12,070 nucleotides of DNA, from the IMG/VR virus record IMGVR_UViG_3300029721_000142, one strand, 5' to 3'. The notes under the pieces are model-generated. The model was not told the origin of the DNA and did not search any database. It was given only the letters and a program-made list of their open reading frames with translations. Position numbers and translations under genes: made by a program. Position 1 is the first letter of the stretch. Every line of letters begins with the position of its first letter. Positions 1 through 8,125 of the stretch are shown piece after piece. Source of the stretch: a virus. Its lineage: Duplodnaviria; Heunggongvirae; Uroviricota; Caudoviricetes.

Positions 1-1230
1 ATGAGCAGAGCACTTAACAAACTGAGCGATACACAGCTGAGGAAAATCAACGGCACACCCGCCCAAAAAACAGCCTTTCTTAATGACGGTGGAAACCTGA
101 GCGTCAGGCATTCAACCAGTGGCCTTTTAACCTGGTATTTCACTTACAGGGCCGGAACGGGAAGGGGGGCACCACCGGAACGCATTAAGCTGGGAAATTA
201 TCCTGATCTGAGCCTGAAATCAGCCAGGGAAAAAGCCGCCCAGTGTCGCGCATGGCTGGCAGAGGGGAAAAATCCACGTCATGAAATGAATTACACCGTA
301 CAGGAAGCGTTAAAGCCGGTAACGGTTGGCGATGCGCTCACCTACTGGCTTGAGTCGTACGCAAAGGAAAACCGCGTGGATTATGCCGCCCTGAAAAAGC
401 GCCTTAATAATCACGTAATACAGCACATTGGTGCTATGCCGCTGGATAAATGCGAGCTACGGCACTGGCTGGCCTGTTTTGACCAGGTGGCAAAGCGAAC
501 GCCTGTTACTGCCGGATTCTTGCTACAGACGTGCAAACAGGCGCTTAAGTTCTGCCGGAGGCGGCGCTATGCAATCAGCAACGTTCTTGATGATATGAGT
601 GTGGCGGACGTTGGGAAAAAACCGGATATAAGCGAGCGCGTCTTAAGCACCAAAGAACTTGGCGAATTATTGCAGGCACTGGACAAAAAAATATTTTCCC
701 CTTACTACGTCGCACTAATCCGCCTCCTGATTGTTTTCGGATGCCGGACGGTAGAACTGAGGTTATCGGAGATCAGCGAGTGGGATTTTACCGAAATGCT
801 CTGGACCGTGCCGAAAGAACACAGCAAAACGAAGGTGGCAATATTCCGGCCCATACCGGAAGCAATACTGCCGTTCGTCACGCAGCTGGTGGAGCAGAAC
901 AGGCACACGGGCTTATTGCTGGGGGAAGTGAAACAGGAAACAAGCGTGTCGCAGTACGGCAGATTAGCGCACAGGAGGCTAAAACACCCTCACTGGTCAC
1001 TGCATGACATCCGGCGCACCTTTACAACCATGCTGAACGATTTAGGCGTTGATCCGCATGTCGTGGAGCAGCTTACAGGTCATCAGATGCCAGGGATGCA
1101 ACGAGTCTATAACCATTCCCGTTATCTGGATGCGAAACGTGACGCGCTGGATATGTGGACGGAGCGGTTAGGGATACTGGCGGGAACACATGAAAACGTA
1201 ACCACATTGCCAATAGCCAGAGAAATATAA
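1..1230 (+). CDS. int: Tyrosine recombinase / integrase, P4-type
   Basis: 409-aa ORF. C-terminal catalytic region carries the tyrosine-recombinase signature (LHDIRRTF ... LTGHQMPGMQRVYNHSRY, i.e. His-x-x-Arg then the Tyr nucleophile region). N-terminal ~80 aa (LSVRHSTSGLLTWYFTYR) resemble the arm-binding domain of P4-family integrases. Position at the island edge fits. Family assignment from recalled signatures. Confidence 0.9.
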   Translation: MSRALNKLSDTQLRKINGTPAQKTAFLNDGGNLSVRHSTSGLLTWYFTYRAGTGRGAPPERIKLGNYPDLSLKSAREKAAQCRAWLAEGKNPRHEMNYTVQEALKPVTVGDALTYWLESYAKENRVDYAALKKRLNNHVIQHIGAMPLDKCELRHWLACFDQVAKRTPVTAGFLLQTCKQALKFCRRRRYAISNVLDDMSVADVGKKPDISERVLSTKELGELLQALDKKIFSPYYVALIRLLIVFGCRTVELRLSEISEWDFTEMLWTVPKEHSKTKVAIFRPIPEAILPFVTQLVEQNRHTGLLLGEVKQETSVSQYGRLAHRRLKHPHWSLHDIRRTFTTMLNDLGVDPHVVEQLTGHQMPGMQRVYNHSRYLDAKRDALDMWTERLGILAGTHENVTTLPIAREI

Positions 1231-1595: not shown

Positions 1596-1784
1596 GTGTT
1601 AAGCACAGATCGCTTTATACGTGAAAAAGAATGTCAGCAACTTACAGGCCTGAGCCGCTCATGTCGGTACCGCCTGGAAAAAGCCGGACAATTCCCATCA
1701 CGGCGTAAGCTGGGCGGTCGTTCCGTTGGCTGGTCTTTATCCGAAGTTCTGGCATGGAAGGACAGCTGCGAGGCAGTTCACTAA
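1596..1784 (+). CDS. alpA: AlpA-family phage transcriptional regulator (small HTH, excisionase-like)
   Basis: 62-aa ORF with GTG start at 1596 and RBS aaaggggga upstream. The sequence LTGLSRSCRYRLEKAGQFPSRRKLGGRSVGWSLSEVLAWK matches the AlpA family pattern (ITGLSRST.YRL...G.FP....LG.R.V.W...E...W). Position immediately after int is typical of P4-like elements and Gram-negative PICIs. Confidence 0.85.
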   Translation: MLSTDRFIREKECQQLTGLSRSCRYRLEKAGQFPSRRKLGGRSVGWSLSEVLAWKDSCEAVH

Positions 1785-1836: not shown

Positions 1837-2212
1837 ATGAATACTGGATATTCTCCCGAACAAGGGCGGGGCTTCGTTCGTCCTGAAAAACAGAATCTGC
1901 AAAATTTTGCCGAAATTATTCCGGTTATTTCCGGCCTTACTGGCGGGAGTGAAACCAATATTGCTAACGCCAGAGCGTTGCAGATGTTTGATGATAAAAA
2001 GGGAGTAAATTTAACTTACACCCCTGACGGCAATCAGAATATGAGCATTATCTCTGAGTCAGGTTTCTACAAACTAATAAAAACAAAAAGCGCCCCGTTG
2101 CCGGAGCGCCTTTGTGAACAATTAACCTACTGCGCAAAAAATGAATCTGAGCAGTGGGATTATATCAACCATGTGGAGAAGCGCCACAATTGCCGAATAA
2201 CGGGCAAAACAA
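1837..2212 (+). pseudogene. Protein-like 5' part of a 423-codon ORF (1837..3108); probable 3'-truncated gene remnant, possibly with a Bro-N/antirepressor-like fragment
   Basis: The first ~125 codons have normal protein composition (ISESGFYKLIKTKSAPLPERL is faintly Bro-N-like). From about 2212 to 2922 the same frame becomes Cys/Ser/Arg-rich nonsense while the opposite strand holds two well-formed small genes and a terminator. The frame reopens as a plausible small gene only at 2923. No in-frame stop exists before 3108. Confidence 0.3.
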
Positions 2213-2233
2213 AGGCCACCCGCTACGGTGGCC
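2201..2233 (-). terminator. Rho-independent terminator for the minus-strand two-gene operon
   Basis: Perfect 7-bp stem GGCCACC / GGTGGCC (2214-2220 and 2227-2233) with a 6-nt loop. On the minus strand it is followed by TTTGTTTTG. It lies about 80 nt downstream of the 62-aa gene stop. Confidence 0.5.
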
Positions 2234-2312
2234 CCTCGACACAAGCTACACGTTATCCCCAACGCATGAGCATTGCCAACAATGCCACATTTGCGGCTGG
2301 TGGGCAATGCAA

Positions 2313-2501
2313 TCAGTCTGGTTCAGTTCGTTGCCATACCTGCAATGAGCGCTTTTCCCTGTACTCTTTAAGGAATTGCTCAAGGGCAAAAGCACATGGC
2401 GCGAATCTTTCTGATTCATGCTCTATCTTTCTGCGCCGTCTTTTCCGTGCCGGTGATAATGTTTTGGTCAATTCTTTATCGGTCATTGTGTTGTCCTGCA
2501 T
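2313..2501 (-). CDS. Small basic protein (62 aa), downstream partner of the RHH gene; function unknown
   Basis: ORF in the same frame and operon as the RHH gene. Contains an arginine/lysine cluster (ARKRRRRK) followed by a predicted helical segment. An alternative start exists at the second Met (MTDKEL...). Confidence 0.45.
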   Translation of the reverse strand: MQDNTMTDKELTKTLSPARKRRRRKIEHESERFAPCAFALEQFLKEYREKRSLQVWQRTEPD

Positions 2502-2543
2502 AGCAATGCGCCGTAGTTCCTCACACCACGGCGCTGATGGTGA

Positions 2544-2723
2544 TTACTCTGGTTCTTTGGCCTTGCGCCGCTGGCGATATTCAACTTCTCGTTTTAATGC
2601 CGCAGTAACAAATTGCCCCGTACTTTCGCCAGGCATTTTTACCGCCTCAACATTGTTCATAACTTCATGCGGAACCCTTGCCGCAACGGTTTGTGATTTT
2701 GCGTTTACTGCTTTTGTCGCCAT
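2544..2723 (-). CDS. Ribbon-helix-helix (CopG/Arc/MetJ-like) DNA-binding protein, 59 aa; candidate repressor or antitoxin
   Basis: Hand-translated from the minus strand (below the ORF-track size cutoff): MATKAVNAKSQTVAARVPHEVMNNVEAVKMPGESTGQFVTAALKREVEYRQRRKAKEPE. Layout is beta strand (TVAARVP), helix A, loop, helix B, typical of RHH proteins. RBS GAGGGG sits 7 nt upstream of the ATG and an in-frame stop lies 5 codons upstream. It faces the operator cluster at 2773-2826. Confidence 0.65.
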   Translation of the reverse strand: MATKAVNAKSQTVAARVPHEVMNNVEAVKMPGESTGQFVTAALKREVEYRQRRKAKEPE

Positions 2724-2772
2724 GTGGTGTACCCCTCATAAAAAACAAATGCAGTATGCAGGAAAAAAAATA

Positions 2773-2826
2773 AGTGTTCAACACTTGACGTGTTTAACAC
2801 CTGGGTTTAAATTGGTGTTCAACACC
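2773..2826. promoter_or_regulatory. Operator cluster: three copies of the palindrome GTGTT(C/T)AACAC overlapping divergent promoters
   Basis: Seen directly: aGTGTTcAACACt (2773-2785), GTGTTtAACAC (2790-2800), gGTGTTcAACACc (2814-2826). A plus-strand promoter candidate is TTGACG (2785-2790), 17-nt spacer, TAAATT (2808-2813). A minus-strand promoter candidate is TTGAAC, 17-nt spacer, CATACT upstream of the RHH gene. Operators overlap the -35, spacer and +1 regions. Confidence 0.6.
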
Positions 2827-2922
2827 TTGTTGGCGCAAGGTGCAGAAACGACGAAACCCGGCAGTGCGCTAACACTAACCGGGCTTCTAACCACCAACGA
2901 TAGCGAAAGTATCGAGGTAGCT

Positions 2923-3108
2923 ATGAGAAATCATACCACACACCCGCAAGGGCGGGACTCGCACGACCTGAATAAATACATCTGGCGTTTTATCGCCCTG
3001 AGCACGGCACAACCGCGCGTGATTACCATCGAGGCCACCAGCGAACAGGAAGCGCGTCAGCAATCTCCTGATGGCTGCGTGATGGTATTCGCTGCCCGTA
3101 TTCGCTAG
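2923..3108 (+). CDS. Small protein (61 aa), tentatively Icd-like/Ash-region-like; first gene of the early operon
   Basis: ATG at 2923 with RBS GAGGT 5 nt upstream. Protein MRNHTTHPQGRDSHDLNKYIWRFIALSTAQPRVITIEATSEQEARQQSPDGCVMVFAARIR. The ATSE.EAR....FAAR motif resembles small Icd-like proteins found upstream of replication genes in P4-like prophages (from memory, unverified). Confidence 0.45.
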   Translation: MRNHTTHPQGRDSHDLNKYIWRFIALSTAQPRVITIEATSEQEARQQSPDGCVMVFAARIR

Positions 3109-3118
3109 GGGGTAGGCC

Positions 3119-3340
3119 ATGTGCAATAAAACCACACCGGACGCAGCAGCCGCCGCGCTCACTACGCTGATGCACGCGCTTATTGATATTGAATGCACGG
3201 CAGAGCTTGCGCAGGGAGAAGAACAGAAAGACCGGACAACGTTCGCCCAGGAATGTATCCGATACATCGCAACGCGGTCACTGAATGACGCTAAAAATAT
3301 TCTTGTTGCCGATTGTGAAAATGGGGGGGGTTATGCGTGA
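3119..3340 (+). CDS. Hypothetical protein (73 aa)
   Basis: ORF with RBS gggggtagg upstream, tightly packed in the early operon. The C-terminus runs through a G8 homopolymer and overlaps the next gene by 8 nt. Confidence 0.5.
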   Translation: MCNKTTPDAAAAALTTLMHALIDIECTAELAQGEEQKDRTTFAQECIRYIATRSLNDAKNILVADCENGGGYA

Positions 3341-3794: not shown

Positions 3795-4094
3795 ATGAAA
3801 CTTAAATATTCTGGCTTAACTGCCAGTGGCAACACTCACCCTAAATTTACGCGCGGTGATATTTACCGCGACCAGTACGGCGGCACGGTAATGATTAAGG
3901 GCGTGGAAGAACGGCGCGTAACCTACCGCCGTGAAGGTTACGAATATGATTGCGTGATGCCTGTTTATCAGTTCCGGCGTGATTTTTCTCTGGTACAGAC
4001 CGCGCCGCATAACGTGCCCACCAGCAACGCCAGGGCACGGGCAAACATCCAGAAGCTGAAAACCATGATTAACGGATTCAGGGGCAAGAAATGA
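3795..4094 (+). CDS. Hypothetical protein (99 aa)
   Basis: ORF whose stop overlaps the rep start (ATGA at 4091-4094), implying translational coupling. No family recognised with confidence. Confidence 0.55.
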   Translation: MKLKYSGLTASGNTHPKFTRGDIYRDQYGGTVMIKGVEERRVTYRREGYEYDCVMPVYQFRRDFSLVQTAPHNVPTSNARARANIQKLKTMINGFRGKK

Positions 4095-5491
4095 AAAGCG
4101 CACCGAACTTAAAAAAACAGCCTTACGACAAGATGACCGAAGTCATTATTTTTGCGGGTAGTGATGCCTGGGCACATGCGAAACAGTGGCAGGAACAGGA
4201 CGGGCGACTGGCTGGCGATAATGTGCCTCCCGTTGTGCTGGCTGATGATCAACTGGATGAACTGGCAGACCTGAGAATCATCGACGAGGGGCGCTATTGT
4301 GTCCGGCTGTACAAGGCAGGCCACATCAGGCCATCAAATATTAATGCCATTGCGCACAAGCTGGCGGCGGCGGGTGTAACTGATGCGAATTATTACCCCG
4401 AAGGGATGCACAGCCATATGCGGGAGAACTGGCGCGAATACCTGGAACGGGTGCGCGGGAAAGAGCCGGTGGAAGAAAAAAACCACCAGCGAAAAACCAC
4501 GCTACCGATGAGCGTTGGATCTACCGGATACGACACGCAACTGGATTACGTGGTTAAGGGGATTATTCCGGCGGTATCGCTATGCAGCATATACGGGGCT
4601 AGCGGGTCCTATAAATCATTCCTTGCCGGATCGTGGGCGTGCCATGTTGCCACTGGTCGCCAGTGGGGAGGCCGCAGGGTTGCACATGGTGCGGTTCTCT
4701 ATGTGGTTGGTGAAGGCGGTATAGGTGTTCCGCGTCGTGTAAAAGCCTGGGAGGTTGTGCACGATGAGCAGGTGAAAAATCTGTATCTGGTAAACCGCCC
4801 CATCTTTCCGGCTGCCCCGCTTGATGTTGATGAAATGGTTATCGCTGCCCGTCAGGTGGAGCGGGAAACGGGTAAACCTGTACGCATGATTATTCTGGAT
4901 ACGCTGGCGCGTTGCTTTGGTGGGAATGATGAAAATGATTCCCGTGATATGGGGGCGTTTATCCGTGGTTGTGACGAACTGAAACGACGCACAGGGGCCA
5001 CGGTGCTGGTGGTTCACCATTCCGGCAAGGATGAGACGAAAGGCGCGCGCGGTTCCAGTGCATTTCGTGCTTCGCTGGATGCTGAATACCGGATACGCAG
5101 GGAGGACGCAGGAAGCGAAGCGCTGGTTATCTCATGCACCAAAATGAAGGACGCGGAGGAACTCAAAGAAGCCGCATATGACTTACGCGTGGTGGAGCTT
5201 TTTACCGACGCTGACGGTGAATTAATCACGTCGCTGGTGGTGGTGGATGATCCGCGCCCTCCTGTTGAACTGGAGCGCATCGAGGAGGCAGGGAACAAGA
5301 CGGAAAACCATACCGCGCTATGGGGGTGCATCCGTTCACGCACACAGAACGGCGACAAGTGCACGATCCCGCTGTTACGTGATGACATGAAAAAGCTGGG
5401 GTATGAAATGAAAAACTTCCGGCGCTGGCTGTACAAGCTGGAAAAAGATGGGGTTATTCGTATCGATGGGGATGATGTAGCGCCGCTATAA
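4091..5491 (+). CDS. Replication protein: RecA-fold RepA/DnaB-like ATPase (AAA_25 type) with an N-terminal TOPRIM-like region
   Basis: 466 aa. P-loop IYGASGSYKSFLAG, Walker B MIILDTLARC, and the RepA-type motif VLVVHHSGKDETKGARGSSAFRASLD. N-terminal EVIIFAGSDAWAHA ... PVVLADDQLDE is suggestive of a TOPRIM-like domain (inference). Followed immediately by an iteron array. Confidence 0.8.
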   Translation: MKSAPNLKKQPYDKMTEVIIFAGSDAWAHAKQWQEQDGRLAGDNVPPVVLADDQLDELADLRIIDEGRYCVRLYKAGHIRPSNINAIAHKLAAAGVTDANYYPEGMHSHMRENWREYLERVRGKEPVEEKNHQRKTTLPMSVGSTGYDTQLDYVVKGIIPAVSLCSIYGASGSYKSFLAGSWACHVATGRQWGGRRVAHGAVLYVVGEGGIGVPRRVKAWEVVHDEQVKNLYLVNRPIFPAAPLDVDEMVIAARQVERETGKPVRMIILDTLARCFGGNDENDSRDMGAFIRGCDELKRRTGATVLVVHHSGKDETKGARGSSAFRASLDAEYRIRREDAGSEALVISCTKMKDAEELKEAAYDLRVVELFTDADGELITSLVVVDDPRPPVELERIEEAGNKTENHTALWGCIRSRTQNGDKCTIPLLRDDMKKLGYEMKNFRRWLYKLEKDGVIRIDGDDVAPL

Positions 5492-6863: not shown

Positions 6864-7070
6864 ATGGCTGAAGAGAAAAAAGGCGGTGTTTCGGTGTACA
6901 TAAGCCCCGACATCGTGAAGGCGCTCAAGGAACGCCACCAGCAGAACGTAAAAGCAGGCATTGCGGCAGGACTTGATCCGCTGGCGATGGTTGAGCCGTC
7001 AACAGGCTGGCAGGTACGCGCCTATTTACGCGCGGCGCTGGGTATGAATCAGGTTCACGGGGGTGAATAA
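6864..7070 (+). CDS. Hypothetical protein (68 aa), first gene of the late/capsid operon
   Basis: ORF with a good RBS. Its stop overlaps the capsid gene start (TAATG), implying translational coupling. Function unknown; a scaffold or size-determination role is speculation. Confidence 0.6.
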   Translation: MAEEKKGGVSVYISPDIVKALKERHQQNVKAGIAAGLDPLAMVEPSTGWQVRAYLRAALGMNQVHGGE

Positions 7071-8125
7071 TGACAGTAAAAGCAATGGCACTTAACACTA
7101 ACCAGCTTTTTGCGTACCTGAATCGCGGGGATATTGCGGAATTTAAATTCAGTCCGCTGTTTACCACGCTGTTTTTCCCGAACGTGGCGACATTCAGCAC
7201 GCAAAACATCATGCTGGATACCCTGGACATTGAAGAAGTCACCATGTCGGCGTTTTGTTCGCCTATGGTGGGTAGCCAGGTTCAGCGCGATAAAGGGTAC
7301 GAAACCAGCACGATTAAACCTGGCTACATGAAGCCAAAGCACGAAATCGATCCAACGAAAACCATCATGCGCATGGCTGGAGAAGATCCGGCACAGCTTA
7401 ACGACCCTACCTATCGCCGTATGCGCCTGATTACTGGCAATATGCGCCGCCAGATAAACGCCATAAAAGCGCGCGTGGAATGGCTGGCGGTAAATGCGGT
7501 AACGACCGGAAAAAACATCATTGAAGGCGAAGGCATAGAGCGCTATGAAATCGACTGGAAGATACCGGAAAAAAACATCATAGAGCAGGCCGACGGGAAA
7601 AAATGGTCAGAGCAGGACAAAGAAACCCACGATCCAATCTATGATATCGAACTATACGCCGATCAGGCTGGTTGCCCCGCAAACGTCATGATTATGGGCG
7701 CTGAGGTATGGCGAACGTTACGCAGCTTTAAAAAATTCCGTGAGCTGTACGATCTTTCCCGTGGTTCAGAGTCCGCCGCAGAGCTGGCCTGTAAAAACCT
7801 GGGCGAAGTGGTGAGCTTTAAAGGCTATCTGGGCGATATTGCCCTTATCGTCTATTCCGGCAAATACACTGACAGCGACGGCACAGAAAAATATTTCCTT
7901 GAGCCTGATTTGCTTGTCCTGGGCAACACCAACAATAAAGGGCTGGTGGCCTATGGTGCGATTATGGATCAGGACGCAGTAAGAACGGGCGCAACGCAAA
8001 ACATGTTTTACCCGAAAAACTGGATTGAGGACGGCGATCCGGCGATTGAGTACGTGCAGACGCACAGCGCACCGCAGCCGGTTCCGGCAGATATTCGCAA
8101 ATTTGTTACCGTCAAAATTGGTTAA
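7070..8125 (+). CDS. Major capsid protein, lambda gpE-like (HK97 fold)
   Basis: 351 aa. Blocks of recalled similarity to lambda gpE (341 aa): EFKFSPLFTTLFF vs KFKFDPLFLRLFF; KPGYMKPKHEIDP vs TPGYVKPKHEVNP; DPTYRRMRLITGNMR vs DPAYRRRRIIMQNMR; KWSEQDKETHDPIYDIELYA vs EWSKRDKSTYDPTDDIEAYA; YPKNWIEDGDPAIEY vs YPKNWVTTGDPAREF. Similar length. Confidence 0.9.
   Translation: MTVKAMALNTNQLFAYLNRGDIAEFKFSPLFTTLFFPNVATFSTQNIMLDTLDIEEVTMSAFCSPMVGSQVQRDKGYETSTIKPGYMKPKHEIDPTKTIMRMAGEDPAQLNDPTYRRMRLITGNMRRQINAIKARVEWLAVNAVTTGKNIIEGEGIERYEIDWKIPEKNIIEQADGKKWSEQDKETHDPIYDIELYADQAGCPANVMIMGAEVWRTLRSFKKFRELYDLSRGSESAAELACKNLGEVVSFKGYLGDIALIVYSGKYTDSDGTEKYFLEPDLLVLGNTNNKGLVAYGAIMDQDAVRTGATQNMFYPKNWIEDGDPAIEYVQTHSAPQPVPADIRKFVTVKIG

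Follow-up and report, generated by a model that had tools for sequence, protein, structure and literature searches.

A candidate YlcI-family repressor with exchangeable operators and an antisense RNA at the early operon of an Escherichia coli phage satellite

The viral DNA analysed here (IMG/VR record IMGVR_UViG_3300029721_000142; 12,070 nucleotides, hereafter the window) is, judging from its sequence, an Escherichia coli phage satellite of the EcCICFT073 type, integrated between roxA and phoQ. Within it, a short leftward operon beginning with ylcI, the gene of a 59-residue YlcI/YnfO-family protein, diverges from a rightward early operon that opens with an Icd-like gene and extends into the replication genes. 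We consider it probable that YlcI is a ribbon-helix-helix (RHH) repressor with exchangeable operators, and that it is joined by an antisense RNA lock on the rightward early operon. The global repressor of Gram-negative phage-inducible chromosomal islands (PICIs) is described as unclear (PMC6092414), and a later survey named only Bro-network genes and C4/isrK RNAs in the zone concerned (PMC10111431). Taken as a unit, ylcI, its operators and the antisense RNA look like the missing off switch of this E. coli satellite family. The original prediction, made from the window alone, had read the leftward operon as either a repressor switch or a toxin-antitoxin (TA) pair; its first half is strongly favoured by co-variation, by a cassette swap and by operators lying over both promoters, all of them comparative lines of evidence, whereas its second half is not borne out.

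Operators, divergent promoters and the YlcI protein

Three exact copies of GTGTTYAACAC lie between ylcI and the Icd-like gene (Table 1), a count matched by none of 200 dinucleotide-preserving shuffles. They had been proposed to cover the -35 element, spacer and start site of a rightward promoter (PR) driving the Icd-like gene and the replication operon; the sites are confirmed, and PR was found where it faces those genes. Relatives were collected by scanning one genome per species, which gave 31 loci spread over many Enterobacterales. Upstream of each ylcI in these relatives there are two to four copies of an 11-bp, mostly palindromic motif, which is lineage-specific in sequence and conserved in position, at about -100, at -77, and at -32 or -61 from the ylcI ATG. 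All relatives keep the TTGAC of the PR -35 element beside the middle operator, and the (C/T)ATACT of the leftward promoter (PL) -10 element is likewise kept. A Shine-Dalgarno sequence, GAGGGG, stands upstream of the ylcI ATG. Such repeats could also belong to a partition or copy-control site of the excised island, with the RHH protein as a ParG/omega-type centromere-binding or replication accessory protein. This is extremely improbable: neither the island's open reading frame (ORF) list nor the annotation of the relatives shows ParA or any other partition ATPase, the repeats coincide exactly with promoter elements, and the published origin lies downstream of pri (PMC10111431).

The 59-residue minus-strand RHH protein of the original prediction is upheld by its ORF, its family and its signature. 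It matches NCBIfam NF041551 (YlcI/YnfO) with 59.7 bits (E 2.1e-16, cut-off 30), residues 9-50 spanning the whole profile, and also phrog_949. RefSeq annotates the gene in other genomes, and it had therefore been overlooked only by the ORF track used at that time. In an alignment of 33 homologues, a short N-terminal strand with R-V-P at its end leads into helix A, which an invariant G-E-S turn separates from helix B; this is the β-α-α topology of the Arc/MetJ/CopG class, with its G-x-S/T/N turn opening helix 2. In an AlphaFold monomer, helices at residues 19-28 and 35-56 follow an extended N-terminus (mean predicted local distance difference test score 79.6). By these sequence features the protein is of the RHH fold. 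The window protein gave no match to Pfam DUF3950 (PF13132, gathering cut-off 25 bits), which the 65-residue allele of the E. coli island L036 reaches with 28.3 bits, and neither Foldseek nor a sequence profile search against the PDB returned matches. A literature search that left most subscription journals outside its coverage found no function for YlcI, YnfO or DUF3950, and no functional description of RHH proteins in PICIs, of the Icd-like gene or of the antisense RNA.

The link between YlcI and the operators comes from comparison with E. coli CFT073. In a blastn alignment, positions 1501-2576 of the window are 99.1% identical to CFT073 and positions 2836-3117 are 91.5% identical, with no alignment between them; the segment exchanged holds the first 49 codons of ylcI, both promoters and all operators. 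Its CFT073 counterpart has the β-strand KSQALKAR and the operator GTGGGCCACAC. The operators thus differ completely between two islands in which p57, the product of the second leftward gene, is identical and the Icd-like protein nearly so, and one AlpA accession (WP_000953274.1) is shared by CFT073 and an island with window-type operators. As these three proteins stay constant, or nearly so, while the operators differ, they are not the specific operator readers, and YlcI would by elimination be the only protein that tracks operator sequence. It could be argued that AlpA, which is a DNA-binding regulator, p57, or the Icd-like protein, which matches phrog_6196 and phrog_1743 with the PHROG label 'transcriptional repressor', reads the palindromes while YlcI does something else. 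We regard this as highly improbable, because the same AlpA occurs with two different operator sequences and only YlcI residues 1-49 change with the operators.

The same β-strand motif pairs with the same operator across genera (Table 2). On this comparative evidence, the N-terminal part of YlcI and the operators behave as one exchangeable specificity cassette that is swapped as a unit, and related islands would therefore be 'heteroimmune' in the manner of lambdoid phages. The Edwardsiella hoshinae locus (L002, 3800-4180) has operators and YlcI residues 1-57 that almost match those of the window, while int and alpA of that island show only 23-33% identity; it seems that the cassette travels between genera on its own, apart from the remainder of the island. 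N-terminal arms of the form MAT[KG].. go with GTG...CAC operators and those of the form M[TS](R)D.. with CTG...CAG operators, in about three independent lineages, which hints that the arm may read the outer operator bases and the β-ribbon the centre. Where other islands have ylcI, those of O157 carry an unrelated Arc-like RHH protein with two GGTAATTACC palindromes; when the YlcI profile was compared with this protein by hhalign, the alignment had the expected register at a probability of only 2.7%, which is not significant. A one-mismatch copy of the operator (GTGTTAAGCAC) also occurs at 1596-1606, on the alpA start codon. It is probably there by chance, since alpA is 99% identical in CFT073 despite the different CFT073 operator.

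Table 1. Positions of the features discussed, in window coordinates
Feature	Position	Strand	Description
ylcI	2544-2723	-	YlcI-family RHH gene, 59 residues; proposed operator-binding repressor
Operator O3	2774-2784		GTGTTCAACAC; overlaps PL -35, abuts PR -35; at -61 from the ylcI ATG in the specificity class of the window
Operator O2	2790-2800		GTGTTTAACAC; last base of PR -35 and spacer; at -77 from the ylcI ATG in almost all relatives
Operator O1	2815-2825		GTGTTCAACAC; begins 2 nucleotides past PR -10, over the expected start site; about -100 to -102 in relatives
Rightward early promoter PR	2785-2813	+	TTGACG (2785-2790), 17 nucleotides, TAAATT (2808-2813)
Leftward promoter PL	2753-2781	-	-35 TTGAAC (2781→2776, within O3), 17-nucleotide spacer, -10 CATACT (2758→2753)
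Swapped immunity cassette relative to EcCICFT073	2577-2835		YlcI codons 1-49, both promoters and all operators
SymR-like cis-antisense RNA	2843-2922 (2922→2843)	-	About 80 nucleotides; two hairpins and U-rich tail
Extended -10 of the antisense-RNA promoter	2930-2938	-	TGGTATGAT; inside Icd-like codons 3-6, 7 nucleotides upstream of the RNA 5' end
Inverted repeat	2823-2842	+	CACCTTG-6-CAAGGTG; 5' end of the PR transcript, between antisense-RNA terminator and O1
Icd-like gene	2923-3108	+	First gene of the rightward early operon; NF033153, 69 bits; ORF list and synteny
p57	2313-2486	-	Arginine-rich, 57 residues; second gene of the leftward operon, variable cargo slot
Terminator-like hairpin	2209-2236	-	GGGGCCACC-GUAGCG-GGUGGCCUU, then UGUUUUG; end of the leftward ylcI-p57 operon
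int	1-1230		Island integrase; ORF list
alpA	1596-1784		62-residue AlpA; PF05930, 65.8 bits
Truncated Bro-N/Ant remnant	about 1837-2130	+	Next gene after alpA
RepA-type helicase	4091-5491		Reached by the rightward early operon
Capsid gene	7070-8125		ORF list; ssb and decoration genes also in the island

Table 2. YlcI β-strand motifs and the operators with which they occur
β-strand motif	Operator	Found in
KSQT[VLI]AAR	GTGTTRAACAC	E. coli, Edwardsiella, Pectobacterium, Kosakonia
KSQ[SA]LK[SA]R	GTGTGGCCCAC	Dryocola, Yokenella, E. coli CFT073
KS[KR]KLEAR	GTGTCAGCCAC	Pectobacterium, Xenorhabdus
KSQK[VL]Q[AT]R	GTGGA[GC]TCCAC	Serratia, Enterobacter pulveris, Tenebrionibacter
KSQKMSAR	CTGGCACCCAG	Xenorhabdus beddingii, Proteus hauseri
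KSAKKNIR	TGTGCGCACA	E. coli

A predicted antisense RNA opposite the Icd-like leader

A second element, absent from the original prediction, lies at 2843-2922. Its complementarity to the PR leader is complete and takes in the Shine-Dalgarno sequence of the Icd-like gene (GAGG, 2915-2918), and it ends about 18 nucleotides before O1. In an alignment of 24 sequences it folds into two hairpins of 15 pairs in total, with 98.6% of cells paired and compensatory changes in 12 of the 15 pairs; none of 500 shuffles gave a structure as good, and slid controls collapsed. In the minus-strand reading, 21 G·U pairs occur in the stems and no A·C pair, the latter being what a G·U pair of the plus strand would appear as, and the selected structure therefore belongs to the minus-strand transcript. 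The predicted RNA has a minimum free energy of -35.1 kcal/mol (z -5.2). Upstream of its 5' end a TAnnnT hexamer is present in all 24 aligned sequences, while the middle bases and the overlapping codons vary. These comparisons support a real minus-strand RNA with conserved structure.

Its relationship to SymR was seen in both directions. When 2650-3150 was scanned permissively with Rfam, symR (RF01809) matched over its full length at 2850-2922 on the minus strand (33.3 bits, E 1.5e-4; gathering score 61), and the Pectobacterium relative L008 gave 40.4 bits on the corresponding strand, also below the gathering score. Conversely, a covariance model built from the aligned sequences (R1) scored 75 bits in the window and 55-72 bits in E. 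coli islands on which it had not been trained, with one match per locus on the expected strand; on a 12-kb region of K-12 its sole match was the annotated symR, with coordinates and strand in exact agreement (24.3 bits, E 0.002). With its position opposite a 5' untranslated region and Shine-Dalgarno sequence, its own predicted promoter and terminator and its conserved antisense-strand structure, the element has the features of the SymR-type cis-antisense class. It is presumably expressed and would act on the transcript that it covers. At gathering scores the Rfam scan of the window gave no match, and an immunity RNA of the C4, isrK or P4 CI type in the leader was rejected, as none matched at gathering score in the window or at E<=10 in 2650-3150.

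The inverted repeat that opens the PR transcript, between the terminator of the antisense RNA and O1, might serve as a 5' stabilizing hairpin or as one more site for protein binding. Its arms covary in relatives (TTGAATG/CATTCAA, CTTGAGT/ACTCAAG and CACCTTGA/TCAAGGTG).

The proposed switch, AlpA and the second leftward gene

We infer from sequence comparison that YlcI binds DNA, represses and regulates its own synthesis. Its dimers would most likely bind the three 11-bp palindromes. In the quiescent island, YlcI on O2, over the -35 element and spacer, and on O1, over the start site, would shut PR and so keep the Icd-like gene and the replication operon off, and on O3 it would overlap the PL -35 element and exert negative autoregulation of ylcI. 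The antisense RNA, transcribed constitutively and leftward from the extended -10 element within the Icd-like gene, would be a second lock further downstream: by blocking translation or destabilizing the transcript that leaks from PR, it would keep the Icd-like gene and the replication operon off.

Several observations weigh against this reading. PL has a consensus score of only 8 of 12, which placed it below the scan cut-off; the U-tract of the antisense RNA is interrupted; and the symR score in the window is well below the Rfam gathering score. In a Mantel test, operator distance correlates with β-strand distance (r 0.60, p 2e-4) and equally well with helix distance (r 0.59); the correlation therefore reflects shared descent and no β-strand-specific code, and we dropped the test as evidence for such a code. 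Finally, AlpA overexpression alone induces EcCICFT073, in which the module is present (PMC6092414).

The last point bears on the place of AlpA. Helper-phage-induced AlpA is required and sufficient for EcCICFT073 induction (PMC6092414), and EcCICFT073 carries the ylcI-operator module; the RHH protein is therefore no insurmountable lock, and AlpA must override it. This could occur in two ways. In the first, convergent transcription from alpA would cross ylcI and p57 and continue into the early operon. The second would be the action of the Bro-N, AntA/B or Rha antirepressors that follow alpA in intact relatives. The P. aeruginosa AlpA antiterminator was rejected as a model for read-through; it is an eight-helix Q-like factor, unlike the 62-residue PF05930 AlpA of the window. 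The sufficiency of AlpA (PMC6092414) would also suit another arrangement, in which the early operon is governed by AlpA and the antisense RNA, YlcI does no more than autoregulate the leftward cargo operon locally, and the overlap of the palindromes with PR matters little. O3 does overlap the PL -35 element, and most relatives have a further site just past the PL -10 element. We nevertheless consider this arrangement unlikely: the two best-conserved sites, at -77 and about -100, flank the -35 element, spacer and start site of PR in every lineage, and the window places two of its three sites on PR, in the geometry of a divergent-promoter repressor.

The TA reading rested on the second leftward gene, which had been described as encoding a 62-residue basic protein and as being followed by a terminator. 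The gene and the terminator-like hairpin are both present; the length is doubtful. An upstream ATG at 2501 (ORF 2313-2501) would yield 62 residues, whereas most of 36 homologues have 57 residues, starting at residue 6 of the longer frame, and the ATG at 2486 is preceded by AGGA. As most homologues begin at this internal methionine and AGGA lies upstream, the product probably has 57 residues. p57 matches phrog_21027 (E 1.6e-15) and is under purifying selection, with ratios of nonsynonymous to synonymous substitution rates (dN/dS) of 0.17-0.44 in divergent pairs and with indels kept in frame. Its homologues were found only in E. coli and Shigella. AlphaFold2 models it as a disordered arginine-rich N-terminus followed by a single long helix; that the arginine-rich segment binds nucleic acid is a guess. 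The GC-rich hairpin at 2209-2236 is followed by UUUGUUUUG (-21.9 kcal/mol, z -2.3) and is not listed by a consensus terminator scan. The scan does list a second terminator-like hairpin with a U-run, at 2086-2113 on the minus strand within the Bro-N remnant (-20.5 kcal/mol, z -4.9); about 100 nucleotides beyond the first, it could be a second or backup leftward terminator.

If ylcI and p57 were a type II TA or addiction module stabilizing the island, with the RHH protein as antitoxin and the basic protein as toxin, the two genes should be found together. In 10 of 23 relatives ylcI is monocistronic, the next feature being the convergent end of alpA with no ORF of at least 35 residues between; the Xenorhabdus and Tenebrionibacter loci, for instance, have 161-266 nucleotides between the ylcI stop and the alpA end, with no ORF of at least 35 residues. 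Other relatives have unrelated genes in the p57 slot, and in O157 islands p57 sits behind the unrelated Arc-like RHH gene. Profile searches of Pfam, NCBIfam, PHROGs and PADLOC, a check that the original prediction had itself suggested, returned no toxin or defence family, and p57 had no match at all in Pfam, NCBIfam or PADLOC; its disordered arginine-rich tail and one helix are no recognizable toxin fold. YlcI, for its part, has only a basic tail of about nine residues after helix 2, without a C-terminal toxin-neutralizing domain, and of the three operators two are placed on the opposite promoter. A TA pair is very unlikely. p57 is instead treated here, on comparative grounds, as a real gene that is a passenger in a variable cargo slot and would be expressed from the repressor promoter. 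In Pectobacterium polonicum (L008, 4495-5283), this slot holds a 262-residue RES-domain protein (PF08808, 71.5 bits), about 300 nucleotides downstream of ylcI.

Related systems, significance and island context

The mechanism class, an RHH repressor at divergent promoters with a cis-antisense RNA, is classical. The immI region of phage P22 has the RHH repressors Mnt and Arc, the divergent promoters Pmnt and Pant and the sar antisense RNA. The window resembles it in having a small candidate RHH repressor gene divergent from the promoter that it would repress, palindromic operators over both promoters, a predicted short antisense RNA made from a promoter inside the downstream gene and covering the ribosome-binding site of that gene, and antirepressor (Ant/Bro-N) genes in the neighbourhood. 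It differs in that no sequence-level relation of YlcI to Mnt or Arc was detected, that three operators are present rather than one, that the Icd-like gene and a satellite replication operon would be controlled instead of ant, and that the satellite also needs AlpA. The K-12 symE/SymR locus likewise has a two-hairpin antisense RNA of 77-80 nucleotides beside a start codon, covering the Shine-Dalgarno sequence of a repressor-controlled gene, and the reciprocal matches described above are sub-threshold, the symR scores of 33.3 and 40.4 bits being far below the gathering score of 61; the target is Icd-like rather than SymE, and an RHH protein stands in place of LexA. In P1/P7 immI (c4 RNA-icd-ant) and with the P4 CI RNA, an Icd-type gene is also the first gene of an operon restrained by a small RNA, with Bro-N/Ant nearby; those RNAs are processed from the sense transcript, whereas that of the window is cis-antisense to its target. 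Some Gram-negative PICIs are reported to carry C4/isrK-type RNAs (PMC10111431). Stl (Rpr), the master repressor of Staphylococcus aureus pathogenicity islands and Gram-positive PICIs, is also divergent from a satellite excision-replication operon, between int and the replication module; Stl is a large helix-turn-helix protein lifted by binding helper-phage proteins, unlike the 59-residue RHH protein of the window, which is not known to interact with a helper protein. AlpA is required for induction here (PMC6092414). K-12 YlcI (prophage DLP12) and YnfO (prophage Qin), of DUF3950, belong to the same NCBIfam family and have the same RHH-like sequence pattern. K-12 ylcI was rejected as a model: it lies in a different genomic context, the late region beside nohD, and lacks a comparable operator array, having no triple-palindrome divergent promoter upstream.

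What appears to be new is the repressor role for YlcI/YnfO, which suggests a function for the family, and the exchangeable specificity cassette in Gram-negative and capsid-forming PICIs. The wider proposal is that these PICIs, including EcCICFT073, share a two-layer immunity of exchangeable RHH-operator cassettes and a SymR-like antisense RNA covering the first early gene, a lock that AlpA overrides; this we find plausible without calling it probable. If it is true, many specificity classes would make co-resident islands heteroimmune, and AlpA, so far regarded as the sole master regulator, would act by overriding a lock rather than by simple activation. With such classes, several islands (as many as six in one E. 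coli genome) may be able to live together without repressing one another, and the classes may also be targets of helper-phage or satellite antirepressors. The cognate RHH-operator cassette in the prototype island is a concrete and cheaply testable candidate for the missing repressor. The distribution of SymR-type antisense cassettes would extend far beyond the one symER locus of the chromosome. PICIs are being engineered as delivery vehicles, whose design would also be affected by an unrecognized lock of repressor and antisense RNA on the replication genes.

Gram-negative PICIs of the EcCICFT073 type are recognized by an int-alpA-...-primase/rep order, a size of about 10 kb and a specific attachment site, and the island is of this type; it shares the roxA/phoQ insertion site with EcCICFT073, and phoQ stands at the right end of the window. 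The order int-alpA-[variable]-ylcI<-|->icd-like...primase recurs in more than 25 of the 31 loci, from Xenorhabdus, Proteus, Pectobacterium, Serratia, Klebsiella and other genera. The Rfam int-alpA RNA motif (RF02996) scores above its gathering threshold between int and alpA in three relatives (L003 6853-6921, L005 6893-6961 and L018 6519-6587). The Bro-N gene is truncated in the window and in the relative L001, which is identical in this region, and no intact copy is annotated there in CFT073; other E. coli islands (L036-L038) have intact Bro-N, AntA/AntB or Rha antirepressor genes after alpA, in the same direction as alpA and convergent with ylcI.

A 423-codon open frame on the plus strand (1837-3108) runs antisense to p57, ylcI and the promoter/operator region and shares the reading frame of the Icd-like gene. 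This frame is open for 700-1100 nucleotides upstream of the Icd-like gene in seven of eight E. coli loci and for at least 400 nucleotides in 14 of 23 loci from other genera; conceivably it is a side effect of the conserved genes on the other strand. RefSeq PGAP annotation renders it as 'Bro-N' or 'Icd-like' pseudogenes, and in LR881103, a packaged capsid-forming PICI, a 325-residue hypothetical protein is called in it and ylcI is left unannotated; the small genes of this region are thus often displaced in current annotation by a spurious long ORF on the opposite strand. In L036, an annotated 111-residue 'Icd-like' coding sequence (2094-2429) takes in the whole antisense-RNA region (2145-2225), its start codon having probably been called too far upstream.

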